Source of the DNA: a bacterium | GTDB lineage: Bacteria; Patescibacteriota; Minisyncoccia; Phycocordibacterales; JAUSHB01 | Length of the DNA: 64,000 nucleotides | Assembly (NCBI GenBank): GCA_030648955.1 | Contig: JAUSHB010000006.1 | Location: 11,866-75,865, forward strand | Direction: 5' to 3' | Part shown: one piece after another, positions 5,484-52,801 of the stretch | How positions within the stretch are numbered: position 1 is the stretch's first letter | Layout of the letters: each line of letters starts with the position of its first letter | Notes under the pieces: model-generated | What the model saw: only the letters and a program-made list of their open reading frames with translations | What the model was told of the DNA's origin: nothing | The model's database searches: none | Program-made: the position numbers and the translations under genes

Positions 5484-6701
5484 CTAAGTAAATTTACCTA
5501 CGAGCTGATAGATAGGGAGTAGTATCGAGAGAGCGACGGCACCGATAACAAGCCCCATAAAAAGAAGGAGGACCGGCTCAATGAGCGAGGATAGGTCTTT
5601 TAGTTTTCCGTCAACTTCTTCTTCATAAAAATCTGATACAGTCGCAAGGATAGAGGTGAGTGTCCCTGTTTTTTCTCCCATAAGAATGAGGCTTACGAAC
5701 AGATGGGGAAACAAATGGGGATATTTTAAAAATGTTTGTGAAAAAGGAATTCCGCTTTGTATTTCTTTTGCAGATTTTAAAATCGCTTCGCGATAATAAT
5801 AATTTCCCACCGAGTTTGCTGAAAGCTCAAGCGCTTCTGTCGCGGGTATTCCGCTCCCAATGAGACCCCCCAGAGTACGCGCAAAGCGTATAAGTGCTAC
5901 TTTTTTTACAAGATCACTTGCAATCGGAACCTTAAGTAATATTTTAAAAAAGAATTTTCTCCCGCGTTCAGTTTTGCGAAAAAAAACAAAGAACCAAATG
6001 AAAAACGCAACAATTCCTACATCAACAAAGATATAGGTCGAAAGAAAATTACTTGTTGCAATAAGTATCTTTGTCACGAGAGGTAATTCAACGCCACTTT
6101 GTAAAAATGCTTTTGTCAGTCGCGGAAGTACAAAAATCAGCAAAAGCCCGATTACTGCAACCGAACCAACAAGAAGTATGACGGGGTAGGTGAGCGCAGA
6201 TCTTACCTTACGGGTGAGATTATATTCTTTGGTGAGATATTTCCCTAAGTTATCAAGTGTCACGTCCAGCTGTCCAGATGCTTCAGCCGCTTTAAGCATT
6301 CCCAGAAACATGGGCGGAAAATATTTCCCATTCATCTCAAACCCTCGTGAAAGCGGCTGCCCGTTTTTTACTTGCGATTTTGCAGTACGCAAAACTTTCT
6401 GTAGAATTTTCTTTTTAGTGTCCTCAATAAGAATATCAAGTGCCTCAATAATGCCGAGCCCCGCACGAATCGCAGCTGAAAGATTGCGAACTAAAAAAAC
6501 AATGTCGACAGGCGTGATGCGCTCAAAAATTGAGATAGCCAAAATTCCTTCTTTTTCTCCAATCTTAATCTGATTGATAGACACAGGAGTCAATCCACGT
6601 TTATTCAAATGTGTGACCACCTCGCGCTCATTGGCGGCATCAAACTCACCTCGAATTATTGCGCCATCTTTGTCATACCCTTCGTAGAAATAGATGCTCA
6701 T
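5484..6701 (-). CDS. pilC: Type IV pilus assembly platform protein PilC (GspF family)
   Basis: 405 aa. Two T2SS_F-type repeats and three TM segments. Typical PilC N-terminus MSIYFYEGYDKDGAIIRGEF. Adjacent to pilB. Confidence 0.9.
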   Translation of the reverse strand: MSIYFYEGYDKDGAIIRGEFDAANEREVVTHLNKRGLTPVSINQIKIGEKEGILAISIFERITPVDIVFLVRNLSAAIRAGLGIIEALDILIEDTKKKILQKVLRTAKSQVKNGQPLSRGFEMNGKYFPPMFLGMLKAAEASGQLDVTLDNLGKYLTKEYNLTRKVRSALTYPVILLVGSVAVIGLLLIFVLPRLTKAFLQSGVELPLVTKILIATSNFLSTYIFVDVGIVAFFIWFFVFFRKTERGRKFFFKILLKVPIASDLVKKVALIRFARTLGGLIGSGIPATEALELSANSVGNYYYREAILKSAKEIQSGIPFSQTFLKYPHLFPHLFVSLILMGEKTGTLTSILATVSDFYEEEVDGKLKDLSSLIEPVLLLFMGLVIGAVALSILLPIYQLVGKFT

Positions 6702-6713: not shown

Positions 6714-8438
6714 TTACTCCCTCACCACCCTTAATATTTCCTCAATAGTGGTCATTCCCCGTTCAACTTTCCCGAGACCATCCTCAAACATTGTTACCAT
6801 TCCTTCACGAATCGCCACCTTGCGAATTTCCCCTACTGTAGCAACTTTCATAAGAAGCTCCCGAATCGCATTACTCACCTGGAACAACTCGAAGATACCA
6901 ATTTGTCCCGTAAACCCCGTATTGCCGCATACCTTGCACCCCTTACCACGATAGAGCGTAGTTGGTGTATTTTTTATATTACCTTCACCAAGTGTTTTTA
7001 TCTCCCCCACAATAAGATGATTTATTTCTGCGGGGATGGGGTATGACTCAACACATGATGTACATATCCTACGAACTAAGCGTTGAGCTATCACGAGATT
7101 CACGGTTGAAGAAAGTAGGAATGCGGGAGCACCCATATCAAGAAGACGGGGCAGGGCCGAGGGAGCATCATTCGTATGAAGAGATGAAAGCACTAAATGT
7201 CCCGTAAGGGCGGCATGGACTGCGATTTCTACTGTTTCATTGTCACGTATCTCACCAATCATTATGATGTCGGGATTTTGACGCAAAAGTGCACGCAGAC
7301 CATTAGCAAAGGTGATGCCTGATTTTGAATTTACCTGCGTTTGATTAATGCCGGATACTTGATATTCTATCGGATCCTCGATTGTCGTTATATTTACTTT
7401 TGTCGTATTCAAAATATTGAGCATTGCATAGAGCGTAGTTGTCTTTCCGTGTCCCGTAGGACCCGTAACCAATATCATTCCGTGGGGTTTTTTGATCTCC
7501 TCATCAATCCGAGTTTGCATTTTTTCAGGAACACCCAGGTCATCGAGAGTAAGTGGACGAGCGGAATTTTTCAATAGTCGCATTTCAACTTTTTCACCAT
7601 GGAATATCGGCATGATGTTGGTACGAATATCAATAGCTGTACCGTCCTCAATTTCAAAACGAAATCGTCCATCTTGGGGTGTTCTATGTTCATCGATTTG
7701 TAGGTTGCCAAGAATTTTCACCCGCGCAACAAGAATTGGCGCAATCGTTTTGGGAAGTGCTAATATTTCCTGCATGATTCCATCGATACGAAATCGTACC
7801 AGGAGAGCTTTTTCGAGCGGCTCAAAATGGATATCGGAAGCATTGAGTACCGCTGCATGCTCCACGATATTATCAAGGATCGCCACAATGGGAACCGCGG
7901 AAGCTGTTTTTGCCAAATCTGTATCACTGCTCACGGCAATTAAAAGTGACTTTTCTATGTTTTCAGATATTGTTTGATTAAATCCTACGCCAATTTTCTT
8001 TTTATATTGCCTAAGACCATATTTAAAGCTCGTAATCGTCATGAGATGTGTTTCTATCCAAACACCAAGTTTTGCGCGCAAGAATTCAATCGTATCAAGA
8101 TCGAGCGGATCAAGCATCGCGATTTTGAGAATTTTTTTAGTCACATCATGCTCAAAAGCAATAACGCTCTTTGATTTAGCGTAATTTTCTGAAACAAGCT
8201 CAAGTGTCTTTTGTGGAATATTGACCTTTTTAAGGTTTATGAGTGGAACTTCAAAATATGGAGAAAGAACTTCCGATAAGTATTCCTCTGAAATATATCC
8301 TTTCCCCATGAGAATCTCGGGAATTTCGCGTCCTGTTTTAAATGACTCATCACGAGCCAATTCAAAATCCTTATCAGTCACCACGCCGGATTCATTTAGT
8401 ATTTTTTTTAGGTTGTCGGTGGTAATGTGCATGCCCAC
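6714..8438 (-). CDS. pilB: Type IV pilus assembly ATPase PilB (GspE family)
   Basis: N-terminal GSPII_E N-domain. Walker A LVTGPTGHGKTTTL. Asp/His boxes. C-terminal tetracysteine CTSCV...CKVCGNTG. Confidence 0.9.
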   Translation of the reverse strand: MGMHITTDNLKKILNESGVVTDKDFELARDESFKTGREIPEILMGKGYISEEYLSEVLSPYFEVPLINLKKVNIPQKTLELVSENYAKSKSVIAFEHDVTKKILKIAMLDPLDLDTIEFLRAKLGVWIETHLMTITSFKYGLRQYKKKIGVGFNQTISENIEKSLLIAVSSDTDLAKTASAVPIVAILDNIVEHAAVLNASDIHFEPLEKALLVRFRIDGIMQEILALPKTIAPILVARVKILGNLQIDEHRTPQDGRFRFEIEDGTAIDIRTNIMPIFHGEKVEMRLLKNSARPLTLDDLGVPEKMQTRIDEEIKKPHGMILVTGPTGHGKTTTLYAMLNILNTTKVNITTIEDPIEYQVSGINQTQVNSKSGITFANGLRALLRQNPDIIMIGEIRDNETVEIAVHAALTGHLVLSSLHTNDAPSALPRLLDMGAPAFLLSSTVNLVIAQRLVRRICTSCVESYPIPAEINHLIVGEIKTLGEGNIKNTPTTLYRGKGCKVCGNTGFTGQIGIFELFQVSNAIRELLMKVATVGEIRKVAIREGMVTMFEDGLGKVERGMTTIEEILRVVRE

Positions 8439-10219: not shown

Positions 10220-10258
10220 ACATACTACTCAACAATAGATAACTGTGGGTGTGGATAA

Positions 10259-13829: not shown

Positions 13830-13865
13830 TGTATGTGCTGTTTATAGGGCACTCGCTTTTTCTCG

Positions 13866-15545: not shown

Positions 15546-15552
15546 ACATTCG

Positions 15553-17136: not shown

Positions 17137-17137
17137 G

Positions 17138-18435: not shown

Positions 18436-18444
18436 TGGTATAAT
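18436..18444 (+). promoter_or_regulatory. Candidate extended -10 (TGGTATAAT) upstream of pilM-pilN
   Basis: tatagTGGTATAATc lies about 65 bp upstream of the pilM start. The -35 element is weak or unclear. Confidence 0.25.
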
Positions 18445-18509
18445 CTTTAAGTATGGCGTAATTTCAGATCCCCAGTATCTGCCGTACGCAGGAATAGACT
18501 TAATTTAAA

Positions 18510-19946
18510 ATGAACTTTATTAAAATTTTCACACGAGAGGAGTCAATCGCGGGTCTTGAAATAAGCGAGACTCATCTGAAGCTCGCGTTTCTAACCCTCG
18601 AAACTTCTCACAAAAAAGAACAGCCAACCCTACGTATCAAAGCACTCACCGAAGAACCTCTACCGGGGGGCACTATACAAGATGGCGAAGTTCTCGATAG
18701 AGAAGCATTGACAGCTTCCCTTATTAAACTCCTCAATAAATCACCGAGTGTTAAATATTTTATTGTTTCCATACCGGGGAATAAACTTTACCAAAAGATT
18801 TTTCCATTTCCCCAGACTATTTTAGAAGAGCGCCTTGTTGACGCGATGAAATTGGTGACGACATTCCAATTACCCTACGCGGAAGATACGGCCTATGTTG
18901 ATTGGGAAAAATCATCAAATAATCTGCACAATGAAGTTTTTCTTGCCACTGCCCCCAAGACTGTTGTCGAAGGATTTTTATCAGCACTTGATCGTGCGGG
19001 GGTCAAAACAGTTGCGCTCGAATCACACACAATGAGCTTGGCTCGAGTAGTAGAACATGAAGACCAACCTATTCTGGTATGTAACACCGGAAAAACAGAC
19101 ATCACATTCTCGGTGGTAAAAAATGGTATTCCACGATTTGAAAGAATCACCCCAATTTCTCTCTTGGGTGAAAAATCCATGAGTATGGAGATGGAAAAAA
19201 TTAAAAAATTTTATGAGGTTGAATGGAGGGAGGTAATTACGCGCGTAATTGAACTTCCCCATGTTTCGCTTTTTCACTCACTTGCGCTTGAGTTGAAACG
19301 TTTTGGCGGGGAGAATAATACAACAGCATGGGTAATTGCTCTTGGGGCAGCCATGCGCGGACTTCTCCCGCGAGCAGAAGATACCATCGTGAGCATGCTT
19401 CCCGTAGGTACCGAAAAAGCATATGAGTACCAGAAGGCGGTAGCATTTTCAAAATTTATCACCAACACCACAATCGGTCTTGCGCTATTCTGGACTGCAA
19501 TATTTTTCAGTTCGTGGATTCTTTTGTCGGCAATTCAACAAGATTCCAATAAAGAACTCTCGTCACTCTCATCGCTTCCCTCTTCAGCGGAAAACTTGGC
19601 TCTTGAAGATCGGGCGCACGAATTTAACGCACTCGCAAGGCGAGCAAATTCTATTATTGCCACATTTCCCGCATGGAGTATGGTTGTTGAGGATGTTAAA
19701 GCCCATAGCGTGAAGGGTATCACTATTACCAATGTTTCATTCGCCACCCCTGATTCACTTTTTTCATTAACCGGCATAGCCGCAACACGCGCCGATATTA
19801 ATATATTTAAAAAATCGATGGAAACTTCAAAGATTTTTACCGAAATGACCATTCCCCTTACAAACCTTGAACAACGAGCAAATATTTCTTTTTCAGCAAC
19901 ATTCCGCATGATCGATCCGAATGTCTTGTATCAAGGTAACAAGTAA
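18510..19946 (+). CDS. pilM: PilM-PilN fusion protein: actin-like ATPase-fold PilM domain, TM segment and PilN-like periplasmic tail
   Basis: N-terminus ...ESIAGLEISETHLKLAFLT matches the PilM start. Internal TM TTIGLALFWTAIFFSSWILLSAI at about aa 315. About 140 further residues follow. Confidence 0.8.
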   Translation: MNFIKIFTREESIAGLEISETHLKLAFLTLETSHKKEQPTLRIKALTEEPLPGGTIQDGEVLDREALTASLIKLLNKSPSVKYFIVSIPGNKLYQKIFPFPQTILEERLVDAMKLVTTFQLPYAEDTAYVDWEKSSNNLHNEVFLATAPKTVVEGFLSALDRAGVKTVALESHTMSLARVVEHEDQPILVCNTGKTDITFSVVKNGIPRFERITPISLLGEKSMSMEMEKIKKFYEVEWREVITRVIELPHVSLFHSLALELKRFGGENNTTAWVIALGAAMRGLLPRAEDTIVSMLPVGTEKAYEYQKAVAFSKFITNTTIGLALFWTAIFFSSWILLSAIQQDSNKELSSLSSLPSSAENLALEDRAHEFNALARRANSIIATFPAWSMVVEDVKAHSVKGITITNVSFATPDSLFSLTGIAATRADINIFKKSMETSKIFTEMTIPLTNLEQRANISFSATFRMIDPNVLYQGNK

Positions 19947-19959
19947 AAAAAACTTATTT

Positions 19960-20523
19960 ATGCTTACTCGACGACAACTTTTAATAACCCTGGGTAAACA
20001 TTTTTTTGTGATGATCACAGCCATCATCGTAGCATCTATTGCCATATCCATACTCAGTAGAAATATTACGTCAATCGGAGATTCCCTCATTGAAAAAAAA
20101 CGACTATCGATCATACTTTCCAAACGAGGCGAATATCTTTCGGGACTCAAGCGAGATTTTAATGTTGTGGGCGAAGCAGACAAAAGGATTATAGAAGCAT
20201 CCCCGCCTTCTGATAATATTCTCCCTTTTGTCGCCATTCTCGAAAACATAGCGGATCAGACATCAGTACAACAGTCGTTTAAATTTGGAATTCCATCGCT
20301 CACGGGTGAAAAACAAAACGGTATGGAAATCGCAACCATAGACTACTCAATTCGCGTAAACGGAAACGTACATACCCTGATTAATTATTTACAGCGGTTT
20401 GAGTCGCTCCCCTACTTTTCAACAATCTCAAGTATAACCATATCCGGAGGTGGAACACGGGGCTGGGAAGAAACTGCTCAGGCAACAATTGAAGCAAAAA
20501 TCTACACACTGTCGAATCAATAA
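19960..20523 (+). CDS. PilO-like type IV pilus inner-membrane assembly protein
   Basis: Start MLTRRQLLITLGKHFFVMITAIIVASIAISIL (single TM). About 150-aa periplasmic domain. Position after pilM/N. Confidence 0.55.
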   Translation: MLTRRQLLITLGKHFFVMITAIIVASIAISILSRNITSIGDSLIEKKRLSIILSKRGEYLSGLKRDFNVVGEADKRIIEASPPSDNILPFVAILENIADQTSVQQSFKFGIPSLTGEKQNGMEIATIDYSIRVNGNVHTLINYLQRFESLPYFSTISSITISGGGTRGWEETAQATIEAKIYTLSNQ

Positions 20524-20551
20524 ATACAATCTCTTACTTTATTAAAATACC

Positions 20552-21181
20552 ATGAAAGAGCGATATAAAATTAAATTAAAGGAGATCATAAAAGGAATCA
20601 CGTGGAAAAAAGTCTTCTACCCGACGCTTGTTAGTATTTTTGCACTTATTATTATTGTATTGTTCATATTTTCCGTACGCTTTATCTCTAAAAGTATCAA
20701 TCGAGTATTTATAAATGAGGAAAGTATTGAGGGTCAATTGCCACGTCTTGAACTTGATAGTTATTTACCTGTCGCAAAAAAATTAGGCATCCCGGTAAAC
20801 ACATTTGAACCATCACAGGAGCTCGGTGATGAATTTGTGGCAGAATCACAAATTCATACGCCCTCGAACTCATCCGCTACCAGTTCGCAGTATACTATCG
20901 ACAACATACAATCGCTTAAAATTGCCATATACAATAGCACTGATGTTCCTGGTCTAGCTCAAAATCTTAAGAATATTCTCAAAGAAAAAGGTTTTGAGGT
21001 GACCGAGACTGGCAATACGGAAAAGACGGGCGACCATACGCTGATTAAAATAAAAGAAAGTAAAAAGGACTCATTGGCGGAAGTAAAAACGATTGTTGGC
21101 GAACACTACAATATCGGTGAATCCCCTTTTCTTTCTGAAGATAGCGAATTTGACGTAATTATCATAATAGGAGATAAATAG
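20552..21181 (+). CDS. Membrane protein with a C-terminal LytR_C-like domain
   Basis: N-terminal TM. C-terminal block LKIAIYNSTDVPGLAQNLKNILKEKGFEV...DVIIIIGDK is typical of the LytR C-terminal domain. Confidence 0.5.
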   Translation: MKERYKIKLKEIIKGITWKKVFYPTLVSIFALIIIVLFIFSVRFISKSINRVFINEESIEGQLPRLELDSYLPVAKKLGIPVNTFEPSQELGDEFVAESQIHTPSNSSATSSQYTIDNIQSLKIAIYNSTDVPGLAQNLKNILKEKGFEVTETGNTEKTGDHTLIKIKESKKDSLAEVKTIVGEHYNIGESPFLSEDSEFDVIIIIGDK

Positions 21182-21243
21182 ATTTGTGGGATACTCCATC
21201 GTGAGCATATCAAAAAAATCACATACTACTGCTATAAAAAAGA

Positions 21244-21873
21244 TTGGGTATGAATAATAAGATTGAAAAATATTTTGGGTCAAAAACAATATTTTTCAAT
21301 AGAGGATTTACTCTCATTGAGCTCCTGGTTGTCATTGCGATTATCGGCATTTTGGCGTCGGTAGTTCTTGCGTCGCTTAATACCGCGAGAGACAAAGCAA
21401 AGACATCAAAAGTTAAGGCTGATCTTAGGTCATTGCGCACCGCTATCGCCCTTCTTGAAGATGACACGGGAAAATGGCCAAATGGATGCCCACCGGCAAC
21501 AGTAGCTAACCCAGAGGTTGCGCTTGATAATGCGCTAGCGGGAATTAAAGTAACGTCAACAGTTGGTTGCACTGAAGATAGCAATAACAGCAATAACCCC
21601 ACATGTGACGCCCCTATTGTGTGCCAGTGGACAGCACAAGATATCACGAATTGGAAAGGACCGTACATGCAAACACCTGTTGACCCATGGGGAAATTCTT
21701 ATATTTTTGATCCTGACTATCACCAATATGCCGATTGTGGGACTGAACCAGCCTCAAATAAATATCCTACCATTCCAGAATTTGTTACCGTTTTTTCTTC
21801 TGGACCAGATGAATTGGGGAATGGGACAACGGGAACATACGGCTGTGATGACATATTCCTCAAAATACAATAA
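21244..21873 (+). CDS. Type IV pilin / GspG-like pseudopilin
   Basis: ...NRG|FTLIELLVVIAIIGILASVVLASLN prepilin signal. GspG-type motif DPWGNSYIF. Cys pairs in the head domain. Confidence 0.8.
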   Translation: MGMNNKIEKYFGSKTIFFNRGFTLIELLVVIAIIGILASVVLASLNTARDKAKTSKVKADLRSLRTAIALLEDDTGKWPNGCPPATVANPEVALDNALAGIKVTSTVGCTEDSNNSNNPTCDAPIVCQWTAQDITNWKGPYMQTPVDPWGNSYIFDPDYHQYADCGTEPASNKYPTIPEFVTVFSSGPDELGNGTTGTYGCDDIFLKIQ

Positions 21874-30512: not shown

Positions 30513-30543
30513 AAAACGGCGCACACAGTGCGCCGTTTTTTTA
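30513..30543. terminator. Bidirectional intrinsic terminator downstream of rpoD
   Basis: aacggcgca-cacag-tgcgccgtt followed by ttttttt. A-run on the other side. Confidence 0.75.
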
Positions 30544-30576
30544 TGTTACGTGTTACAAGTTATACGCTACGCGACT

Positions 30577-31827
30577 TCAGTAATTCTTAAGCCGCAGAGC
30601 TTTCTCATGCATGCGGATCTTTTCAAGCGCTTTTGCTTCAATTTGGCGGATACGTTCGCGTGTCACGCCAAACTCTTTCCCCACTTCTTCGAGTGTGTGT
30701 ATGACGCCATGCGCATCACCCAATCCATGCCGCATTTCAAGAATTTTACGTTCTTTCGGAGAAAGATCGTCTAAAATCTCTGTTACTTGATCGGTAAGAA
30801 TGCGCCGTGAAGAATCCTGATCAGGTGCAAGAATTTTCTCGTCCGCAATAAATTCTCCCAATGTTGACTTCTCGTCACCCTCATCGCCGATCGGTTTTTC
30901 AAGTGAAACGGTGTCTTGATCGATCTTTTCAATCGTATGAATTTTGTCCACTTCAACACCCATTTCAGTTGCAATTTCTTCCGCAAGCGGTTCGCGTCCA
31001 AGGTCTTGCGAAAGACGGCGCACTACTTGTTTGTATTTCGCAATCGTCTCAACCATGTGCACCGGAATACGAATGGTGCGCGATTGGTCTGCAAGCGCGC
31101 GAGTGATCGCCTGCCTAATCCACCATGTTGCATAGGTGGAAAATTTATATCCCTTCGACCATTCAAATTTGTCAACTGCTTTAAAAAGCCCTAGATTCCC
31201 TTCTTGAATAAGGTCTAAAAGGGTTAAGTCTGCACTTCTTCCCACATATTTTTTTGCTATAGAAACAACAAGGCGAAGGTTGGCACGGGCAAGAAGATTT
31301 TTTGCCTCCATGTCGCCTTTTTCTATGCGTTTAGCAAGTTCTTTTTCTTCATGCGCACTGATAAGCGGATATTGCCCAATCTCTTTAAGATACATCTGAA
31401 TCGAGTCATATGATGATCCTTCGCTATAAAGTTTTTTGCCTGTTTCCGGTCCCGTCTGGAGAAGATCGCCTCCCTCAAGTACATCGATGCCTGCTTTATT
31501 GAGACGCTCATACAACTCATCGAGAAATGAAACATCATCTTCAATATTGGGAAATTCTTTAAGGAGCTCATCGTACGTCACAAATCCGCGCTCATACCCT
31601 TTTAAAATAAGCGTGTCAGCTTTTTTATTTAAACTGTCTCCCCGTTTTTTTGCAACTTTTATGAGTTTTGCTTCGATTGCTTTTTCTTTTTTTGTAGGCT
31701 TCTTAACCAGCTCTTTTTTTATCATCTTCTTTGATACAGAAGAAGAGCGTTTTACCTTACGAGATAAAACTTTTTTCGTTTTTTTCACCTTTTTCGTTTT
31801 CTTTTCTGTGGAAGATTTTTTTACCAT
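30577..31827 (-). CDS. rpoD: RNA polymerase primary sigma factor (sigma-70 family) with a Lys-rich N-terminal extension
   Basis: Region 2 ...[19 protein letters not shown]. Region 4 ...[23 protein letters not shown]. Confidence 0.9.
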
Positions 31828-46166: not shown

Positions 46167-48140
46167 ATGTATAAGGAAGCTCAAAATAACCCTCCCCATA
46201 AGGACGATAAATCCTCTGCACTTGAAGGAATCATTGGTATTACCCCTAAGGGAATTGGGTATGTAAAAATTCCCGACAGAGAAGAGGATATCGAGGTTGC
46301 TTCGCTGTTTCTCAATACCGCACTTCATCGAGATACGGTACGCGTCATTCTCCATCCGCAAACTCCCGGCGAGCGTGTTCAAGGCGAGGTGGTCGAGATA
46401 CTCACCAGAAATAAAATGGAATATGTTGGTGTTCTCGAACGCCATCAGGATTTTTATTTTCTTGTTCCACAAGATATGCGGATGTATGTCGACATCATTG
46501 TTCCCGCTTCAAAAGCGCTCGGTGCGGAACATGGGGAAAAAGTGCTTGTGGCGATTACGAGCTGGAATGATCCCAAAAAAAGCCCTGAAGGCGAAGTGAT
46601 CAAAGTTATCGGCAAACCCGGCGACAACAATGTCGAGATGGAGGCCATTGTGCTTGATACCGGTCTTCGTCCTGATTTTCCAGAAAAAGCATTAAGAGAA
46701 GCTGGAGCAATCAAAAAAAATGAGGAGACGGAGTTTAAACGCGACATTGAGTTACGACGCGATATGCGCAATGTTACCACCTTCACGATCGACCCCGTTG
46801 ACGCAAAAGACTTCGACGATGCATTGTCGTACCAGAAACTCCCTGATGGAACAATTGAGATCGGCATCCATATCGCTGATGTATCCCATTACTTGCGTCC
46901 CGACACTGACTTGGATATAGAAGCGGCGCGCAGGGGTAATTCGATTTATCTTGTCGACCGCACCATCCCCATGCTCCCTGAAGTTCTTTCAAACGACCTT
47001 TGCAGTCTCAATCCAAATGAAGACAAGCTCACCTTTGCCGCAATATTTACGTTTGGGAAAGACACGCTTGAGAAGGGCACTCCGCACATTACCAGCGAGT
47101 GGTTCGGGAAAACGATCATCAATTCAGATAAACGATTCAGTTATGAAGAGGCGCAAGGTGTACTTGATGACGGGAAGGGGATTTTTTATGACGAGCTTTT
47201 GATACTCAATAATCTCGCGAAAAAACTCCGCAAAAAACGCGAGGAGGATGGTGCGCTTTCATTCGAACACGAAGAAGTACGATTTGAACTTGATGCAACT
47301 GGCAAACCGCTTCGCGTATACAAAAAAATAATGCAGGATACCAATAAGCTCGTCGAAGAATTCATGCTTCTGGCGAATAAACAGGTAGCGCGTCGTGTTC
47401 ATGAACTCGGCAAGAAAGAAGAAAAACTTTTCGTCTATCGCGTCCACGACGAGCCGGATCAGGAAAAGATCAGTGACTTGATTGAATTCCTCAACAAGCT
47501 TGGCTATAACATTAAGATAAAAAATAAAAATGTGTCATCAAAAGATCTCAATGGGATTTTGAAAATGGCGGAAGGGCGTGCGGAAAAGGATATGATACAG
47601 ACTGCCGCGGTTCGCTCAATGGCAAAAGCGATCTACTCAACAAAAAATATCGGGCATTACGGCCTTGCATTTGAATACTACACGCACTTCACCTCCCCTA
47701 TTCGCCGTTATGCGGACGTGATGGTACATCGCTTACTTGAGAGCTATCTCGCGGGCAAGCATCCGTCGCAAGAAGAACTCCGCCGCTATCAGAGCCTTGC
47801 AAATTACACATCGCAGACAGAACAACTGGCGACGACCGCAGAACGTACATCAATCAAATACAAGCAGGTTGAATATATGACCGAGCGCGTTGGAAAAACA
47901 TTTGACGGCGTTATTTCAGGCATAACGCAATGGGGTCTTTATATCGAAGAAAAAGAAACGAAAGCGGAAGGAATGATCCGCCTGCGCGATATGACCGACG
48001 ACTTCTACGAATTTGATAAAAAACATTTCAGTATGGTGGGACAAAAAAAGAAAAAACGGTACCGCCTCGGCGATGCCGTGAAAGTAAAAGTGAAGCGCGC
48101 AAGTCTCGATGAGCGGCAGATTGATTATGTGTTTGTGTAG
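46167..48140 (+). CDS. rnr: Ribonuclease R / RNase II-family 3'-5' exoribonuclease
   Basis: RNB motif FTIDPVDAKDFDDALS. N-terminal cold-shock-like domains. C-terminal S1 domain. Confidence 0.9.
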   Translation: MYKEAQNNPPHKDDKSSALEGIIGITPKGIGYVKIPDREEDIEVASLFLNTALHRDTVRVILHPQTPGERVQGEVVEILTRNKMEYVGVLERHQDFYFLVPQDMRMYVDIIVPASKALGAEHGEKVLVAITSWNDPKKSPEGEVIKVIGKPGDNNVEMEAIVLDTGLRPDFPEKALREAGAIKKNEETEFKRDIELRRDMRNVTTFTIDPVDAKDFDDALSYQKLPDGTIEIGIHIADVSHYLRPDTDLDIEAARRGNSIYLVDRTIPMLPEVLSNDLCSLNPNEDKLTFAAIFTFGKDTLEKGTPHITSEWFGKTIINSDKRFSYEEAQGVLDDGKGIFYDELLILNNLAKKLRKKREEDGALSFEHEEVRFELDATGKPLRVYKKIMQDTNKLVEEFMLLANKQVARRVHELGKKEEKLFVYRVHDEPDQEKISDLIEFLNKLGYNIKIKNKNVSSKDLNGILKMAEGRAEKDMIQTAAVRSMAKAIYSTKNIGHYGLAFEYYTHFTSPIRRYADVMVHRLLESYLAGKHPSQEELRRYQSLANYTSQTEQLATTAERTSIKYKQVEYMTERVGKTFDGVISGITQWGLYIEEKETKAEGMIRLRDMTDDFYEFDKKHFSMVGQKKKKRYRLGDAVKVKVKRASLDERQIDYVFV

Positions 48141-48157
48141 GTAACTAACAACATTTA

Positions 48158-48209
48158 CCAAGGACTGTCCTTGGTGTTTCGGTCCTTGGTGTTTCGTCCT
48201 TGGTGTTTC
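48158..48209. repeat. Palindrome (ccaaggac/gtccttgg) followed by three tandem copies of tccttggtgtttc
   Basis: Read directly: the palindrome, then copies at 48168-48180, 48183-48195 and 48197-48209. Confidence 0.8.
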
Positions 48210-48212
48210 TGA

Positions 48213-48386
48213 GTGATCGAATCAGTTCTTGTTGGCGATATTGCTCGTCTTGATGTTAAAAAATTGAAGGGTGAAAAGAATGTGTTTCGTATTCGCATTG
48301 GCGATTTGCGTATTATTTTCACGTACAAAAAGAACTTGCCTCGTATTGTTTCCATTGAGCGCCGAAACGACACAACGTATCGTTAG
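48213..48386 (+). pseudogene. 5'-truncated RelE/ParE-family toxin gene remnant
   Basis: Translation ...NVFRIRIGDLRIIFTYKKNLPRIVSIERRNDTTYR* matches the C-terminal half of RelE/ParE toxins. Compare YRFRIGDYRVTFDVENDTAKILKVGHRKDMYR in the intact toxin at 49194-49445. No N-terminal half and no antitoxin. Confidence 0.5.
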
Positions 48387-48414
48387 CGGTAAATTACTCC
48401 CATCAACCAACTAC

Positions 48415-48448
48415 CACAGATTTCAAGCTATAGCTTGAAATCTGTGGT
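48415..48448. repeat. Perfect 34-bp palindrome
   Basis: ccacagatttcaagcta|tagcttgaaatctgtgg. Confidence 0.85.
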
Positions 48449-48471
48449 ACCCATATCCCCTATTCTTATGA

Positions 48472-48516
48472 CGCGCAAGCCTCGACGAACGGCAGATTGA
48501 TTATGTGTTTGTGTAA
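48472..48516 (+). repeat. Displaced duplicate of the rnr 3' end (original at 48096-48140)
   Basis: 41 of 45 nt identical. Encodes RASLDERQIDYVFV* exactly like the rnr C-terminus. All four differences are synonymous, including the stop codon TAG->TAA. Confidence 0.85.
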
Positions 48517-48602
48517 AATACCACTAACTACCTTCAGGTTTGACACTAAAATTGGGCGTGCTAGTCTGCTCATAGAAAACTGAACATGAATACGGAGGAC
48601 AT

Positions 48603-49049
48603 ATGCAACCCCATGCCTTGCAGTTCATTCCCCAAGAAGACCTACGTATATTTCATGAGATAGTAGGAATTGTTGGGCTACTTCCTGACATAATACTAGG
48701 TCACACTAAGACTGGTAGAGAGGTCCCTATATCTTGTCATGTGCTTACGCGAGCACTGGCATCCATTTTTGAAACACTGGAAGTTAAAGACGGTTTTATA
48801 GGATACGGGTCACACTACGAACATTCTTGGTTGCAAACAAGTAGCGGTTCAATTATTGATCCTTATCCTTTTGCTACAGTAGGGGGACCAATTATTCTCG
48901 CTGATGTTTTATTTTGGAGAAGTTTTTACGGCCCAGAAATATGCCTCATTGAACATCAACAGGAACCGTTCACCGCTTGGGTTGAAACAATAACTAATGT
49001 TGTTTATGAAATTTACTACAACCCTAAGGAAAATAAAACTGCTCACTAA
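48603..49049 (+). CDS. Hypothetical protein (148 aa) in the rnr-smc insertion zone
   Basis: Good RBS (GGAGGA 6 nt before ATG). No recognisable motifs. Flanked by the displaced rnr-end and smc-end copies. Confidence 0.5.
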   Translation: MQPHALQFIPQEDLRIFHEIVGIVGLLPDIILGHTKTGREVPISCHVLTRALASIFETLEVKDGFIGYGSHYEHSWLQTSSGSIIDPYPFATVGGPIILADVLFWRSFYGPEICLIEHQQEPFTAWVETITNVVYEIYYNPKENKTAH

Positions 49050-49089
49050 TACATTTAAAAATCACTCGAAAGAGTGGTTTTTTTATTTT

Positions 49090-49140
49090 GCAATCGCGAC
49101 GGCTTCTTCGAATTTAACCGAGAGAAGTTTTGAGACGGCG
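49090..49140 (-). repeat. Displaced duplicate of the smc 3' end (original at 49760-49810)
   Basis: 51 nt identical. Flanking codons encode ...AVSKLLSVKFEEAVAIAK* with synonymous changes (gcg->gca, aag->aaa, TAG->TAA). Confidence 0.85.
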
Positions 49141-49193
49141 CCAGTCCGCTTCTTCCCCTCAACCCTATATCCGTAAAGATTACTACGCACAAC

Positions 49194-49445
49194 CTACCTA
49201 TACATGTCCTTTCTATGCCCAACCTTGAGGATTTTGGCGGTATCATTTTCAACATCAAAGGTTACTCGGTAGTCTCCAATACGGAAACGATATTCTCCGA
49301 GCTCAAAATCGGTAAGATGCTCTGCAAAACCAAGTGGTGAAGGAGCTGACATGTAGAGCTCAAGTTTTTGCTTGATTTGCAATTGGGCTTTCCGAGGAAG
49401 TTTGGAAAATTCTTTAATGGAATTTCCCTTGAAATCGTATCTCAT
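49194..49445 (-). CDS. RelE/ParE-family type II toxin
   Basis: ...GEYRFRIGDYRVTFDVENDTAKILKVGHRKDMYR. Typical RelE/ParE C-terminal signature. 83 aa. Confidence 0.8.
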   Translation of the reverse strand: MRYDFKGNSIKEFSKLPRKAQLQIKQKLELYMSAPSPLGFAEHLTDFELGEYRFRIGDYRVTFDVENDTAKILKVGHRKDMYR

Positions 49446-49448
49446 AAT

Positions 49449-49673
49449 CTATGCAAGTCCGAGTTTCTTATATAGATATGTTGAAGAGACTGCTTTTTTA
49501 GAAGCTCGCGCGCGAGCAATATCTTGTTTATATTTCTTGGAGGTGGACATTTGATAATATTCTTCAAGCATACTGACTCGCTCACGAATGGTCTCCCACG
49601 CCGAAACAGGCAATACCACAACGGGATTCTTGCCAAGTTTAAAAATTTGGGCTTTTTTCATGAATGCATTCAT
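49449..49673 (-). CDS. Cognate antitoxin (Phd/YefM- or RelB-like), 74 aa
   Basis: Small acidic/basic protein immediately upstream of the toxin. 3-nt gap, co-directional. ...NPVVVLPVSAWETIRERVSMLEEYYQM. Confidence 0.6.
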   Translation of the reverse strand: MNAFMKKAQIFKLGKNPVVVLPVSAWETIRERVSMLEEYYQMSTSKKYKQDIARARASKKAVSSTYLYKKLGLA

Positions 49674-49752
49674 TTTTTTATGATACTCTTTTCCTCGAAT
49701 AATCGCAACATCTACCTAGTTTTACTAGGACAATATCCTAGAAAACAGTCAG

Positions 49753-52011
49753 CTACTTCGCAATCGCGACGGCTTCTTCGAATTTAACCGAGAGAAGTTT
49801 TGAGACGGCGTCGGAACCCATGGTAACACCGTAGAGAATCCCCGCGCGGGACATTGTTTCGCGGTTGTGTGTCACCACGATAAGCTGGGAATATTTTGAA
49901 AGATTTTCGAGCATATTGCCATATTTTTTTGAGTTTGCTTCATCAAGCGCCGCATCAGTTTCATCGAGAATAAGAAATGGCGGTGGATTCACCTGCGAGA
50001 TAGCAAACAAAAGCGCGATGGAGGTGAGCGCGCGCTCACCTCCCGAGAGCATATGAAGCCCTTTGATCTTCTTGTGCGGCAAACTTACATTGATATCAAT
50101 TCCTTCTTCCTCTTCAACTTCGCCCTCCTCTTCCCCGCTCTCTAAACCTTCAAGTTCGGGTGGAACTGCGCGCCGGCGTTTCTGCTCTTTTATCAACAAG
50201 AGTGTTGCCGTACCTCCACCAAACATCAGCGCGAAAAATTCTTCAAACTGCTTGTTGATCTTTTTGATCCCGCCCTGAAATTCTTCTCCGAGACGGACCG
50301 TGAGGTCTTGGATAAGCTGCGAGAGCGCTTCTGCGCTTTTTTGCAGATCTTCGATCTCTTTTGCAAGAAATTCGTCTCGCGCAATGGTTTGGTCATGCTC
50401 TTTTACCACATCCTCCCCTGTGCCGCTTCCCATATCCTCAAGCCGAATTTTTATTTTTTCAATACGCTTCCTGCGGTCTTCTTGCACGGTACGTGATTCA
50501 GAATGCGCTTGACCTCCATCAATCGCAAAATCTTTATACGCAAGCACGCCTTCACCCGAAAGGACTTTTGCTTCTTCCAGCTCCCGACGAAAACTTTCTT
50601 CCTCGCGGAGAAGATTTTCTTCCTTCACATCAACTGTGGCAAGCCTTGAAGTAAATTCGCTTTTCTTTGCGCGGATATCAAAGAGCGCCATCTCGGCATC
50701 GCGAGACGAATCTTTTTCTTTCTCTATTTCGTTTCGCGCGAATCCGTATTCTTCCGAAAGCTTTTTTTCTTCATTCACCGCCTCTTGGAGTAAATGATTG
50801 GTTTCTTCGCGGTCTTTCTTGAGTGTTTCCAGTTCGCCTTTTTCATCCTCCCCTTCTGTAATAATCCCTTGACGGCTCTGGGAAATAAACGTCGCAATAA
50901 GATCTCGAATCTTTTTGAAAATTGCTTTTGTGATAGAAAAATCTCCCGAGGTCTCCGCTTCCGCGATATGACGCTCAAGTGACCCCGTGAATTCATTTAC
51001 CAAATTTCGATCAACAGGCGCATTTTCATCGCGAGACGCGCGTTCCGCTTTCTTGCGCAAGACATCTTCCTGATATTCGATCATTCCGTCAAGACGCCCC
51101 TCTTTGCGCGTGAGATCGTCGCGCTTCCTGCGAACTTCCGCGAGTTTCTCTTCGATTGTTTTCAATTTCCGGACACTATCGCTCTCGCCTGTTTCCTTGG
51201 ATCGAAGCGACTCCTGCAAACGCGCGTGCTCATCGCCAAGCCGTTTGAGTTCTTCTTCGGGCACTCGACGCTCTTCTTGTATTGCGCTGCGCGTGCCTCC
51301 AAGATATTCCTCTTCTCGCTTGAGATATTCGTGATAGAGCTTTAAAAGCTCGTCACGAAACGCACGAGCTTGTTCTATTTTCTCAACCTGCTTTTTTAAA
51401 AATTTTATATGAGGCGCAAGCTCGCGACGAAGCGATTCTGCTTCTTTAAGATTTTCTTCCGTCTTTCCGAGTTTTTTATCACTCTCCGCGATCTTCCAAT
51501 GATAGATTTTGAGCCCAAGCGCTTCTTCGATCATCGATTTTCTGTCTCTTGAAGAAGAGTTGAGAATTCTGTCGGCCTCACCCTGTGAAATAATATGATG
51601 CCCCGATGCGCCAATATGCACCCCTGCAAGAAGCTCGATAATATCCCGCAAGCGCACTGCTGTACCGTTGATAAAATATTCGCTCGAAGAGTCGCGATTC
51701 ACTTCGCGACTGATCACCACTTCATCGTAATCGAGATTGAGTTCGCGCTTGGTATTATCAAACGCAATAGAAACTTTGGCATGATTGAGACGTGCAAGAC
51801 TTTTTGAACCATTAAAAATGAGATCTTCTCCGCGCTTGCCGCGAAGCGACTTGAGGGACTGTTCCCCCAGCACAAAACGCACCGCTTCGACAACATTTGA
51901 TTTTCCCGAGCCGTTGGGACCGACGATCGCCGATATGGGAGTATTGAAATCAAAAACACTTTTCTTTGCGAATGATTTGAATCCTCCAACCTCAAGTCGT
52001 TTAAGTTGCAT
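49753..52011 (-). CDS. smc: SMC-family chromosome-segregation ATPase, unusually short (about 750 aa), no recognisable hinge
   Basis: Probable start MQLKRLEVGGFKSFAKK...VGPNGSGKSN (Walker A). Long coiled-coil. C-terminal LSGGERALTSIALLFAI...LILDETDAALD. Conserved rnc-smc synteny. Confidence 0.8.
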   Translation of the reverse strand: MQLKRLEVGGFKSFAKKSVFDFNTPISAIVGPNGSGKSNVVEAVRFVLGEQSLKSLRGKRGEDLIFNGSKSLARLNHAKVSIAFDNTKRELNLDYDEVVISREVNRDSSSEYFINGTAVRLRDIIELLAGVHIGASGHHIISQGEADRILNSSSRDRKSMIEEALGLKIYHWKIAESDKKLGKTEENLKEAESLRRELAPHIKFLKKQVEKIEQARAFRDELLKLYHEYLKREEEYLGGTRSAIQEERRVPEEELKRLGDEHARLQESLRSKETGESDSVRKLKTIEEKLAEVRRKRDDLTRKEGRLDGMIEYQEDVLRKKAERASRDENAPVDRNLVNEFTGSLERHIAEAETSGDFSITKAIFKKIRDLIATFISQSRQGIITEGEDEKGELETLKKDREETNHLLQEAVNEEKKLSEEYGFARNEIEKEKDSSRDAEMALFDIRAKKSEFTSRLATVDVKEENLLREEESFRRELEEAKVLSGEGVLAYKDFAIDGGQAHSESRTVQEDRRKRIEKIKIRLEDMGSGTGEDVVKEHDQTIARDEFLAKEIEDLQKSAEALSQLIQDLTVRLGEEFQGGIKKINKQFEEFFALMFGGGTATLLLIKEQKRRRAVPPELEGLESGEEEGEVEEEEGIDINVSLPHKKIKGLHMLSGGERALTSIALLFAISQVNPPPFLILDETDAALDEANSKKYGNMLENLSKYSQLIVVTHNRETMSRAGILYGVTMGSDAVSKLLSVKFEEAVAIAK

Positions 52012-52021
52012 AAATTCCAGT

Positions 52022-52801
52022 TTATTCCTTATCGACCGTATTCCACTTTTTTTCTTTAAGCGCCTGTGACGCCGCACCTTGTTCTGCTTCTTGTTTAGAC
52101 TTCCCTTGCGCTTCCGCAATGAGCTCGTCTCCCAAAAACACTGCAACTACAAACTTTTTGTCGTGATCGGGACCTGCTTCACGTACTACCTTATACGTTG
52201 GTGTAACCCCCAGCTCGTCTTGCGCTTTCTCCTGCAAGAAACTTTTTGCATCTTTCCATAGTTCCTTCTCAACAATTTCGTGAGTAAGTGGAAGAAGCCA
52301 CTCTGATATAAACGCTTCCACACCTTCATAGTGTTGGTCGAGATACAGTGCCCCTATAAATGCTTCAAACGTATTTGCCAAAATAATTTGGCGTGCCTTT
52401 CCGGTATCTTTCGCCTCCCCTTTTGAAAGAAGAAGGAACTCATTCATTCCAAGCGTATGTGCAACTTCCCCTAGGGTGACCGCATTGACGAGCGCAGAAC
52501 GATAACTCGTAAGATCTCCCTCAGTTCTATCCTGATATTTTTTAAATAAATAATCAGTAACAACAAGTTCAAGTACTGCATCACCCAAAAATTCCAGACG
52601 TTCATTGTGCGTGAGACCTGCCTGCCGCGGCGCACCTGTCTGCGTGGCATGCACAGGCAGATGACTTTGCGGCGCAGGTAGGTCGCTTCGCTTGCTTTCA
52701 TTAATATATGAGCGATGTGTAAATGCCTCCCGAAGCAGATCTTTATTCTTAAAATTTAATTTAAATTTTCGTTCAAATTGGGAAAAATCTTTGTCAGCCA
52801 T
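52022..52801 (-). CDS. rnc: Ribonuclease III, with an about 27-aa insertion before the catalytic signature
   Basis: Signature ERLEFLGDAVLELVV. C-terminal dsRBD. GC-rich in-frame insertion at 52616-52696. Confidence 0.9.
   Translation of the reverse strand: MADKDFSQFERKFKLNFKNKDLLREAFTHRSYINESKRSDLPAPQSHLPVHATQTGAPRQAGLTHNERLEFLGDAVLELVVTDYLFKKYQDRTEGDLTSYRSALVNAVTLGEVAHTLGMNEFLLLSKGEAKDTGKARQIILANTFEAFIGALYLDQHYEGVEAFISEWLLPLTHEIVEKELWKDAKSFLQEKAQDELGVTPTYKVVREAGPDHDKKFVVAVFLGDELIAEAQGKSKQEAEQGAASQALKEKKWNTVDKE

Follow-up and report, generated by a model that had tools for sequence, protein, structure and literature searches.

The essential genes rnr (RNase R) and smc (SMC) converge at a junction in an uncultivated Parcubacteria bacterium, within the 64-kb window, i.e., the whole stretch of DNA analyzed here. 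The RNase R of the window shares 93% identity with that of Parcubacteria GW2011_GWC1_43_11. Between the two genes lie two inserts, each bordered by a second copy of the neighboring gene end. The features are given below in window coordinates, TA standing for toxin-antitoxin and L numbers for related loci.

46167-48140, plus strand: rnr, RNase R, 657 aa, intact, stop codon TAG (Pfam RNB, E 8e-105; CSD2; S1)
48096-48140, plus strand: live end of rnr (final 14 codons and TAG), forming the proximal, attL-like copy of a 45-nt direct repeat
48141-48471, plus strand: insert 1, 331 nt, decayed TA cassette, absent from the empty-site relatives L084 and L095
48157-48175, plus strand: short hairpin ACCAAGGA-CTG-TCCTTGGT, directly 3' of rnr
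48167-48210, plus strand: three tandem copies of GTCCTTGGTGTTTCG
48213-48386, plus strand: RelE/ParE-type toxin gene, C-terminal ~57 codons, truncated, without antitoxin
48412-48449, no strand: perfect 19+19-nt palindrome (-27 kcal/mol, z -10.5), 22 nt before the displaced rnr end
48472-48516, plus strand: displaced rnr end, distal copy, attR-like, noncoding, stop codon TAA, preceded by an in-frame TGA
48603-49049, plus strand: 148-aa ORF, resident gene of the ancestral junction, 51% identity to the same-position ORF of L084
49057-49082, no strand: intrinsic terminator, bidirectional (-12 kcal/mol, z -5), part of the ancestral junction and arranged alike in L084
49083-49140, minus strand: displaced end of smc, distal repeat copy (58 nt) with stop codon TAA, abutting the ancestral terminator
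49141-49752, minus strand: insert 2, an intact 612-nt TA cassette that has its own promoter and is missing in L084, L103, and L104
49194-49445, minus strand: RelE/ParE-family toxin, 83 aa, intact (Pfam ParE_toxin PF05016, E 5e-7; phrog_1213, E 2e-15)
49449-49673, minus strand: putative antitoxin of 74 aa, assigned by position and size, separated from the downstream toxin by 3 nt
49753-49810, minus strand: live smc end, proximal repeat copy, last 18 codons and TAG
49753-52146, minus strand: smc-like gene, intact (Pfam SMC_N, E 4e-69)

The last 45 nt of rnr recur downstream (CGCGCAAGTCTCGATGAGCGGCAGATTGATTATGTGTTTGTGTAG at 48096-48140 vs. CGCGCAAGCCTCGACGAACGGCAGATTGATTATGTGTTTGTGTAA at 48472-48516), differing at 4 of 45 positions, and all four differences are transitions at the third codon position (agt/agc, gat/gac, gag/gaa, and TAG/TAA). 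Position 48096 is in frame with the RNase R ORF and both copies translate to RASLDERQIDYVFV*. Alignment and translation thus confirmed an earlier note on this DNA, which had described the recurrence and its four synonymous mismatches. The last 58 nt of smc (49753-49810) likewise recur at 49083-49140 with three differences, all silent, a second duplication of the same kind that encloses an intact RelE/ParE-antitoxin pair and had been overlooked in that note. A search of the whole 64-kb window for direct repeats of 24 nt or more lying within 6 kb of each other gave only three, two of them being the rnr-end and smc-end repeats and the third a weak 27-nt match (74%) inside smc. Hence, the rnr-end repeat is far beyond chance expectation.

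As described previously, the interval between the rnr copies holds a palindrome, three tandem repeats, and the C-terminal part of a RelE/ParE gene. The toxin fragment matches phrog_1213 ("RelE-like toxin") over profile positions 43 to 87 of 88 (E 4e-6), is 77% identical to residues 22 to 78 of the intact 78-aa toxin of L082, and also matches the intact toxin of the window (BLASTP E 5e-6). Positions 48208-48452 of insert 1 are 85% identical at the nucleotide level to the toxin and palindrome of L082, the tandem copies sitting where L082 has its antitoxin gene and the toxin N terminus. With antitoxin, toxin, and the same palindrome all intact in L082 and L093, the proposal that the fragment is the decayed remnant of a cassette was borne out. 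The best explanation is that the rnr-side cassette lost its antitoxin and toxin N terminus after arrival, the smc-side cassette being intact. In the latter, the toxin scored 30.7 bits against PF05016 (cut-off 23), and a promoter-like TTGCGA-17-TATCAT (49708-49680) lies upstream of the putative antitoxin. Neither the putative antitoxin nor the 148-aa ORF had a match in Pfam, NCBIfam, or PHROG.

Empty sites and alternative cassettes in relatives

Comparison of rnr-smc junctions among relatives, as suggested in the earlier note, revealed the empty site, with single gene ends, in L084, L095, L103, and L104. In the close relatives L084 and L095 the order is rnr, a 146-aa ORF, a terminator, and smc, and the passage from the rnr stop codon through the promoter into the ORF is uninterrupted, in keeping with the view that the DNA between the rnr copies of the window was inserted. 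The single junction of L084 is colinear with window positions 48472-49140, i.e., from the displaced rnr copy onward, and in the window this copy is followed by the ancestral promoter and ORF as in L084. Each L084 gene end aligns to both window copies at about 91%.

Other relatives carry different cassettes at the same junction. L082 and L093 have a Phd/YefM and RelE-like pair with the order antitoxin, toxin, palindrome intact, L083 and L096 have a ParE and MazE-like pair on the opposite strand, and at the smc end of L093 there is a 96-aa ORF with an 18-nt displaced smc remnant. The rnr-smc interval has at least six different contents among relatives, all without mobility genes. An intact version of the element, anticipated as an integrase plus TA genes, was therefore recovered in part: the TA cassette is intact in L082 and L093, and no integrase was found at related junctions. 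The ParE/MazE-like cassettes of L083 and L096 compare at 71 to 77%, about the same divergence as the RNase R of their hosts (74%), which would fit long vertical residence rather than a recent move.

Both gene ends are also duplicated in a second species (74% RNase R identity), represented by L096, L097, and L098, which were assembled independently in different projects with different assemblers and share an identical stretch of 1,630 nt. Its repeats contain 11 differences, all silent. The order in this species is the live rnr end, terminator B, a 51-nt displaced smc end, the TA genes, the palindrome, a 48-nt displaced rnr end, and terminator A. Terminator A is native, as in L102, and terminators A and B differ in sequence, while a direct rnr-smc junction like the L096 mimic exists in L104. 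This layout is exactly what would result if a circle bearing TA genes and a mimic of the whole rnr-terminator-smc junction had recombined with the rnr end by one crossover. The amino acid sequence of the repeat is species-specific (RASLDERQIDYVFV in the window vs. RANMDQRQIDYEFV in L096-98), which indicates that the repeats formed independently in the two species.

In both species (window and L096), the palindrome lies 17 to 22 nt from the displaced rnr end, where it could be a putative protein-binding site. It belongs to a family of Parcubacteria intergenic hairpins, CACAGA-N5-AGCTATAGCT-N5-TCTGTG, which a scan of metagenome contigs found at 10 loci; the N5 positions are complementary in 10 of 11 copies, the single imperfect copy being that of L089. 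Several of these loci are ordinary intergenic positions (ileS/argS and miaA><xseB) without TA genes. A role as a cassette-specific att or attC site was therefore rejected, and the palindrome is taken to be a general hairpin of these bacteria.

Silent differences and repeat boundaries

Over the four repeats, 18 of 18 differences (7 in the window and 11 in L096-98) are silent third-position changes, with P = 1.4e-9 if they were random and P = 2.3e-6 for duplication in situ followed by drift of the dead copy. These data indicate that the copies are alleles, each of which evolved as a working gene end. The second rnr copy had earlier been traced to the functional allele of another lineage. Its descent from a functional allele is upheld by the silent differences; the polarity, however, is probably the reverse. 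Because the downstream, displaced copy is joined to ancestral downstream DNA, it is probably the resident end, and the live end, adjacent to the cassette, is probably the incoming copy.

The outer boundaries of the repeats cluster, at -45 and -49 for rnr and at -57 and -52 for smc (window and L096, respectively), and on the inner side each of the four repeats ends at the stop codon (0 to +4 nt). Both edges are sharp, with no similarity above shuffled controls beyond them in the diverged UTRs. Repeat lengths vary (18, 45, 48, 51, and 58 nt), with perfect blocks of 26 to 54 nt within the repeats of 45 to 58 nt. Neither self-BLAST of about 1 Mb of sequence from 80 distant rnr loci nor a peptide-level scan of 93 loci brought up displaced rnr ends outside the window and L096-98.

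Origin of the duplicated gene ends

The best explanation of the locus is that the convergent rnr/smc junction of this Parcubacteria lineage is a hotspot for very small type II TA cassettes. The sequences directly document the insertions, the empty sites, the allelic repeats, and the return of the pattern in a second species, and they reveal no recombinase gene associated with it. As to how the cassettes arrived, we lean toward integration of integrase-less TA cassettes by single crossover via short gene-end homology, in two independent events in the window. Incoming DNA would carry the TA genes and a short allelic copy of the last 15 to 19 codons of the target gene with its stop codon, and a single reciprocal (Campbell-type) crossover within this short homology would join it to the chromosome. 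The target gene would stay intact, now ending in one copy, and the other copy would become a noncoding direct repeat beyond the cassette, still on ancestral downstream DNA. Both copies would have evolved as working ends in different lineages, leaving silent differences only. We infer a circular or one-ended intermediate and a crossover performed by host homologous recombination after DNA uptake, as opposed to a trans-acting site-specific recombinase; the repeats would then permit precise excision and re-invasion. Type IV pilus genes are present in the 64-kb window, and natural competence, shown only recently in the Candidate Phyla Radiation, has been demonstrated in Patescibacteria (PMC10633639).

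A single homology mechanism serves both gene ends, whereas a site-specific route needs two specificities, which favors homology. Against it, homology of 45 to 58 nt is near the lower limit for RecA-dependent exchange. Moreover, the clustered outer and fixed inner boundaries fit a recombinase or nuclease, so crossover by homology needs survivorship of short repeats. A broader claim is possible, although we regard it as doubtful, namely that these cassettes represent a minimal integrase-less TA family of Patescibacteria, which uses mimics of gene 3' ends as attachment homology and passes through uptake, single-crossover integration, precise excision, and re-invasion. The attachment homology in that reading is the rnr or smc end, or the whole rnr-terminator-smc junction in L096.

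The earlier note had ascribed the duplication to a site-specific element with an integrase and the insert to the remains of a larger element. For decayed integrase-dependent elements (CIME/microCIME), one recombinase would target the rnr 3' end and another that of smc, with the replacement gene end carried on attP; later deletions would have left only the addictive TA genes and the att repeats, or an integrase encoded elsewhere would mobilize the cassettes in trans. A repeat that spans from a fixed internal position to the gene end is the classical signature of an integrase at gene 3' ends, and the sharp repeat boundaries, the near coincidence of the outer ones in two species, and the conserved palindrome beside the displaced copy of the rnr end (window and L096) all accord with such an origin. 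CIMEs and gene-less microCIMEs (130 to 220 bp) are, furthermore, common in streptococci at the 3' ends of rpmG, rpsI, fda, and rplL (PMC7563491). However, no integrase or transposase was found in either insert, among the approximately 45 ORFs of the window, or in related junctions, nor was any integrase found in the flanks (+/-6-7 kb) of about 100 related loci at the rnr/smc junction. About 85 other rnr loci, examined to 7 kb downstream, had no displaced rnr end, and 2.9 million viral contigs contained neither attP-like mimics of either gene end nor relatives of the two RelE-type toxins. The insertion unit looks like a bare TA cassette, with the same event at the smc end, and two elements with different specificities for adjacent genes would both have had to decay to this state. 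In addition, the L096 insert carries a whole junction mimic whose smc end has no role in integration at the rnr end, and members of the palindrome family are found at ordinary intergenic positions as well, with no connection to TA genes or rnr. We therefore consider decayed integrase-dependent elements rather unlikely and the earlier attribution unsupported.

Quite improbable, in our judgment, is a long target duplication made in situ, in which illegitimate or break-repair recombination copied 45 to 58 nt of the target and homologous exchange later imported selection-filtered alleles from other strains, so that initially identical copies acquired silent differences. Such duplications are documented for restriction-modification (R-M) units, with variable repeats, gene 3'-end overlap, and no mobility genes (PMC2853133); repeat lengths vary at this locus too, and the two smc copies of the window agree fully over 54 nt in which relatives vary at several silent positions. 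Yet 18 of 18 silent differences are hard to obtain by dead-copy drift (P = 2e-6) unless recombination dominated over mutation, an inner boundary at the stop codon in four of four repeats is unexpected for random staggered breaks, and the duplicated unit of L096 would have to span the rnr end, terminator, and smc end although its terminators differ. Later allelic exchange could mimic the pattern of an imported copy. An assembly artefact, i.e., a window chimera with the alleles of two co-existing strains stitched in series, is barely credible. The source is evidently metagenomic, the displaced window copies come from a single assembly, exact-protein look-ups of the toxin, antitoxin, and 148-aa ORF found no second record, and L001, from an independent Logan assembly (SRR13727527), matches the window without a difference over 8,275 nt but ends at 48441 inside the palindrome. 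Against a chimera, the outer joins do not lie in shared sequence (cttatga|cgcgcaag), leaving no k-mer graph path, the same two-end architecture is identical in the three independent assemblies L096, L097, and L098, and L093 has a further remnant of the same kind.

Several other candidates were rejected. Viral contigs searched for a phage or plasmid parent lacked the palindrome, the gene-end mimics, and relatives of the two RelE-type toxins. A known RNA or tRNA att site was discounted, as positions 47800-50000 gave no Rfam match at E <= 1 and the window contains neither a tRNA nor a tmRNA. Integration of the dif/Xer (IMEX) type was dismissed because the repeats are gene ends as opposed to dif-like sites and no sustained GC-skew switch occurs at the junction, which is hence not a terminus; cumulative GC skew falls steadily, with a brief local plateau over the plus-strand rnr region. 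As for a general A/C-rich motif after stop codons, none of the 54 remaining window ORFs has one. Mobilization of the IS200/IS605 type gives no long duplications, and a Y1 transposase gene is found 5 kb away in L096 only, with no homologue in the window. For an integron cassette with attC, there is no intI integrase, and the palindrome is perfect, single-copy in the window, and located at ordinary intergenic sites elsewhere.

Comparison with known systems

Chromosomal TA modules are patchily distributed and called "mobile," yet mostly have no transposase, integrase, or recognizable ends, so how they move is an old question. The rnr/smc locus is an unusually legible record, combining an adjacent double event, empty sites, alternative cassettes, and a nested product in a second species. 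Its silent signature is a strong sign that the flanking repeats are alleles and not target duplications, and it turns a vague idea into a testable model in which a cassette carries the end of an essential gene as its landing pad. The TA proteins themselves are ordinary for the RelE/ParE superfamily; like other type II systems of this kind, they comprise a small upstream, putative antitoxin and a toxin of about 80 aa with ParE_toxin or RelE-like profile matches.

The minimal mobile elements of Neisseria, reportedly described by Saunders and Snyder and by Snyder et al. in 2007, are said to consist of conserved flanking genes with strain-variable small cassettes, including TA genes. They reportedly lack mobility genes and are exchanged by transformation and homologous recombination, through double crossover in the flanks. 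The fixed flanks rnr and smc similarly hold different cassettes without mobility genes. Unlike this locus, however, the Neisseria elements make no duplicated gene ends.

By analogy, the cassettes resemble both CIME-type scars and the "insertion with long target duplication" of R-M units. CIMEs and microCIMEs are integrative elements that have decayed but retain att sites in protein-gene 3' ends, for example in streptococci (PMC7563491). In common with them, the inserts described here are integrase-less, carry repeats of the target 3' end, keep the gene intact through a replacement end, range down to a few hundred bp, and accrete in tandem or nested fashion at one site. CIMEs, in contrast, descend from ICEs or IMEs with an att-recognizing integrase, and for rnr or smc neither a parent element of this kind nor an integrase was found in this clade. 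The locus would be ordinary if it were just the CIME-like scar left by an integrase element that has escaped notice.

Insertion with long target duplication has been described for R-M units (Nobusato et al. 2000; Furuta et al. 2010, PMC2853133), which are addiction (post-segregational-killing) modules free of mobility genes, flanked by repeats of at least 46 bp overlapping gene 3' ends, mostly in competent species; in Haemophilus influenzae the 46-bp repeats of an R-M insertion overlap the 3' end of the neighboring gene (PMC2853133). The rnr/smc cassettes likewise are addiction modules with no transposase or integrase, and their direct repeats are single-copy in empty-site genomes. Measured by the terms of Furuta et al. 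2010 (an insert of <20 kb without mobility genes and repeats >30 bp), the inserts are 331 and 612 nt and the repeats 45 and 58 nt. Unlike the R-M cases, the cargo is type II TA, the host is an uncultivated Parcubacteria bacterium, and the repeats are allelic (18 of 18 differences silent) and end at the stop codon. Allelic repeats and the stop-codon boundary favor a copy brought by the cassette over one made from the target. For R-M units, a cycle of invasion, amplification or excision through the repeats, and re-invasion has been hypothesized (PMC2853133) and never shown. If a cycling TA family of the kind proposed above were real, it would be the TA counterpart of that life cycle and would explain in concrete terms how chromosomal TA modules come by the mobility long noted for them. 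The locus also extends "insertion with long target duplication" from R-M units to TA cassettes and to the Candidate Phyla Radiation.

Duplicated ends of rnr and smc

In the window, rnr is convergent with an SMC-like gene (smc), and its last 45 nt (48096-48140) are repeated at 48472-48516 with four mismatches, 4/4 being third-position transitions, such that both copies translate as RASLDERQIDYVFV*. The rnr-end duplication, tandem units, RelE fragment and palindrome described by the earlier note were all present. An independently assembled Logan contig (L001, from SRR13727527) matches the window exactly from ~39.9 kb to 48441, its end falling inside the palindrome. A second duplication had been overlooked: the last 18 codons and stop of smc (49753-49810) were found again at 49083-49140 with three differences (gcg/gca, aag/aaa and TAG/TAA; 3/3 silent), and this pair brackets an intact toxin-antitoxin (TA) cassette.

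Features of the rnr/smc junction in the window
46167..48140, +: rnr (RNase R, 657 aa; RNB domain E 8e-105)
48157-48175: short hairpin between the rnr-end copies
48167-48210: GTCCTTGGTGTTTCG, three times in tandem, between the rnr-end copies
48213..48386: partial RelE-like ORF, only the C-terminal half matched (profile positions 43-87 of 88, E 4e-6)
48412-48449: perfect 38-nt palindrome (-27 kcal/mol, z -10.5)
49194..49445, -: RelE/ParE toxin, 83 aa (PF05016 30.7 bits; phrog_1213 E 2e-15)
49449..49673, -: putative antitoxin, 74 aa
49708-49680: promoter-like site of the smc-side cassette
49753..52146, -: smc (SMC_N E 4e-69)

At both genes the live end, closing the intact gene, uses TAG and the displaced copy beyond the cassette uses TAA. 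Local direct repeats of at least 24 nt numbered three in the 64-kb window, two of them being the rnr and smc repeats and the third a weak one (27 nt, 74% match) inside smc.

The junction in relatives

The closest named RNase R was that of Parcubacteria group bacterium GW2011_GWC1_43_11 (93%), and those of species-level genomes in the genome collection reached at most ~56% identity. Among the contexts of the closest homologues, the rnr/smc junction was highly variable.

Junctions in related loci (RNase R identity to the window in brackets)
L082 and L093 (93%): Phd/YefM antitoxin, 78-aa toxin and a palindrome as in the window
L083 (92%): ParE and MazE-like pair on the opposite strand, then a variant palindrome with both arms changed
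L103 (71-74%): 95-aa ORF between rnr and smc, without repeats
L104 (71-74%): direct rnr/smc convergence, ~100 nt apart, without repeats
L102 (71-74%): other cargo, without repeats

In L084 (87%) and L095 (89%), rnr and its stop are followed by a promoter and a 146-aa ORF, with TA genes and repeats absent; beyond this ORF L084 has a bidirectional terminator and then the smc end, and the L095 contig stops within the ORF. This junction is the empty site, which the earlier note had proposed to seek among relatives. The single junction of L084 is colinear with window 48472-49140, its one rnr end and one smc end are each ~91% identical to both window copies, and a 148-aa ORF in the window is the positional orthologue (51% identity) of the 146-aa ORF. 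Over 48208-48452 the window matches the 3' part of the L082/L093 cassette at 85% identity. Hence, its RelE piece derives from a real cassette by truncation.

Further changes were seen around these genes. A strain variant, L094 (~480-540, against L082 4380-4440), lacks ~50 nt from the interior of the 78-aa toxin gene, so the toxin truncated in the window has decayed here for a second time, independently. The smc end of L093 has a 510-nt insert (96-aa ORF), and 18 nt of the former smc end survive next to the old terminator. Comparison of two assemblies of this species (L082 5246-5266, L093 700-760) revealed a 48-nt deletion between TCAAAA and TGAAAA that takes exactly the live smc end (-48 to stop), after which smc ends ...GSDAV*; its end points match the limits of the unit that is found in duplicate elsewhere. 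The L104 RNase R lacks the usual stop after ...IDYEFV and gains 10 codons (ESADAEASVSRT; 2740-2779). In a distant relative, L052, a 73-nt direct repeat (2639-2711 and 4746-4818, 96% identity) surrounds the whole rnr.

Both gene ends were also duplicated in the species of the RNase R homologue P0008 (74%), where assemblies from different projects (L096, L097 and L098) were identical over 1,630 nt. The order there is rnr live end, terminator B, 51-nt displaced smc end, ParE (-), MazE-like gene (-), palindrome variant, 48-nt displaced rnr end, terminator A (the one found after rnr in L102), Nfu-like gene (-) and smc live end. Displaced and live copies differ at eight positions for smc and three for rnr, 11/11 silent and third-position. 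The repeat amino-acid sequences are species-specific (RANMDQRQIDYEFV in this species); hence, the duplications arose separately here and in the window.

Palindromes, short motifs and in-frame inserts

Scanning metagenomes for CACAGA-N5-AGCTATAGCT-N5-TCTGTG recovered 10 loci, with N5 complementary in 10/11 copies (one L089 copy being imperfect) and arms reaching 26 nt in some loci. The family is widespread in Parcubacteria intergenic regions (loci L085-L090 and L092, plus window 48412-48449), and several members occupy ordinary intergenic positions without TA genes, for which reason the palindrome was rejected as a cassette hallmark. It is a lineage-wide hairpin, terminator-like or REP-like.

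Other short elements recurred. An exact 18-nt segment, AAATAACCAACAACCTAC, lies 3' of the smc stop in one species (L093 721-738) and of the rnr stop in another (L103 2407-2424), on the gene-sense strand in both, and related strings, (G/A)TAAC(T/A)(G/A)ACAA, follow other live rnr ends (sites grouped here: window 48141-48155, L096 8017-8030 and L102 7990-8005); the segment may be a motif conserved at cassette ends, or may form inverted repeats on either side of the intergenic cargo. The motif (A/G)TAACTTGTAACACG(T/A)AACAT, 3' of the sigma-70 gene stop in the window (30530-30576; gene 30577..31827, -) and of the smc stop in L096 (~9395-9436), is another short intergenic repeat family common to different species. 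One relative (L096/L099 794-1456) encodes a 220-aa Y1 transposase (IS200-like, possibly REP-associated) ~5 kb upstream of rnr, with homologues in L009, L022, L034 and L081 and none in the window.

The window RNase III gene (52022..52801) carries a 22-aa in-frame insert, LPAPQSHLPVHATQTGAPRQAG (52616-52681, -), missing from RNase III of three relatives (L084, L096 and L103). Its LPAP...RQAG borders are shared with a ~94-aa in-frame GIY-YIG (PF01541) insertion in another RNase R homologue, P0005 (761 aa), located between ...YQKLPD and GTIEIGIH; the remainder of that protein is 92% identical. The P0005 insertion may be a homing-type element that keeps its host protein in frame, and LPAPQSHLPVHATQTGAPRQAG looks like the footprint of an in-frame GIY-YIG element that moves among essential genes, recalling the palindromic elements of Rickettsia.

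Origin of the duplications and comparison with known systems

Pooled over the four repeats, 18/18 differences are silent, with a probability of 1.6e-12 under uniformly random substitutions, 1.4e-9 under the observed transition/transversion mix and 2.3e-6 when, as the most generous in-situ model allows, selection filters the live copy while the dead copy drifts; the seven window differences alone give ~5e-4 (transition/transversion mix) and ~8e-3 (in-situ model). In each pair, then, both copies have a history as working gene ends, bearing out the proposal of the earlier note that the second copy came from a functional rnr allele. The polarity given in that note to the two copies, however, is probably reversed. 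Distal copies are continuous with the ancestral neighbourhood, namely the promoter and 148-aa ORF on the rnr side and the shared terminator on the smc side, and are hence the resident ends, whereas the live ends adjoin the cassettes. In every repeat one edge coincides with the stop codon (offset 0 to +4 nt) and the other lies within the gene, at -45 (window) and -49 (L096) for rnr and at -57 and -52, respectively, for smc, with no residual similarity past either edge.

For L096, a single reciprocal crossover in rnr-end homology, between a chromosome ordered rnr-terminator A-Nfu-smc and a small circle {rnr end-terminator B-smc end-TA-palindrome}, would give exactly the observed arrangement; such a circle would join the TA cassette to a copied rnr/smc junction of the direct, L104 kind. 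The two window inserts would be products of the same kind of crossover, with homology restricted to one gene end each. We consider such integrase-less, homology-mediated single-crossover integration somewhat the likeliest origin, because a single mechanism would account for both genes, type IV pilus components are encoded in the window and members of the Patescibacteria have proved naturally competent (PMC10633639). The pilus cluster (4256-21873) bears on how these epibionts take up DNA or attach to hosts. A set of PAS/GAF histidine kinases and response regulators is interspersed in it, and it includes several N-methyl pseudopilins along with the following:
5484..6701: PilC-like
6714..8438: PilB-like ATPase
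18510..19946: PilM-like

A trans-acting site-specific recombinase, or an origin as a decayed integrative element retaining att sites (CIME), is an unlikelier source, favored by the regular repeat boundaries and by the palindrome, which in the window species and the L096 species alike is 17-22 nt away from the displaced rnr end. No integrase, transposase or other recombinase was detected in the inserts, the ~45 window ORFs or the flanks of related junctions. The interpretation of the earlier note holds in essence, as the scar of an insertion, an allelic gene end and a decayed TA remnant, but its site-specific integrase is unproven. Among ~85 other rnr loci, none contained a larger element with a displaced rnr end as its boundary; in viral contigs, neither gene end had a mimic and the two RelE-type toxins searched had no relatives; and no tRNA, tmRNA or Rfam family was found at the site. 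GC skew does not switch at the junction, which rules out dif as the integration site. A long target duplication made in situ, with allelic exchange afterwards, is conceivable but strained, and more doubtful still. Assembly artefact is very unlikely.

The closest described phenomenon is the 'insertion with long target duplication' of restriction-modification complexes, addiction modules without mobility genes, whose flanking repeats of at least 46 bp may overlap a gene 3' end, mostly in competent bacteria, and for which a cycle of invasion, excision and re-invasion was hypothesised, never demonstrated (PMC2853133). CIMEs and microCIMEs at gene 3' ends are an integrase-derived analogue (PMC7563491). 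The logic of a cassette-exchange hotspot is common to this locus and the minimal mobile elements of Neisseria. To our knowledge, the latter make no duplications. The rnr/smc locus renders the mobility of chromosomal TA modules directly testable, and is set apart from known systems by its type II TA cargo, its CPR host, insertions that are nested and found on both sides, and repeats with a clear allelic signature.
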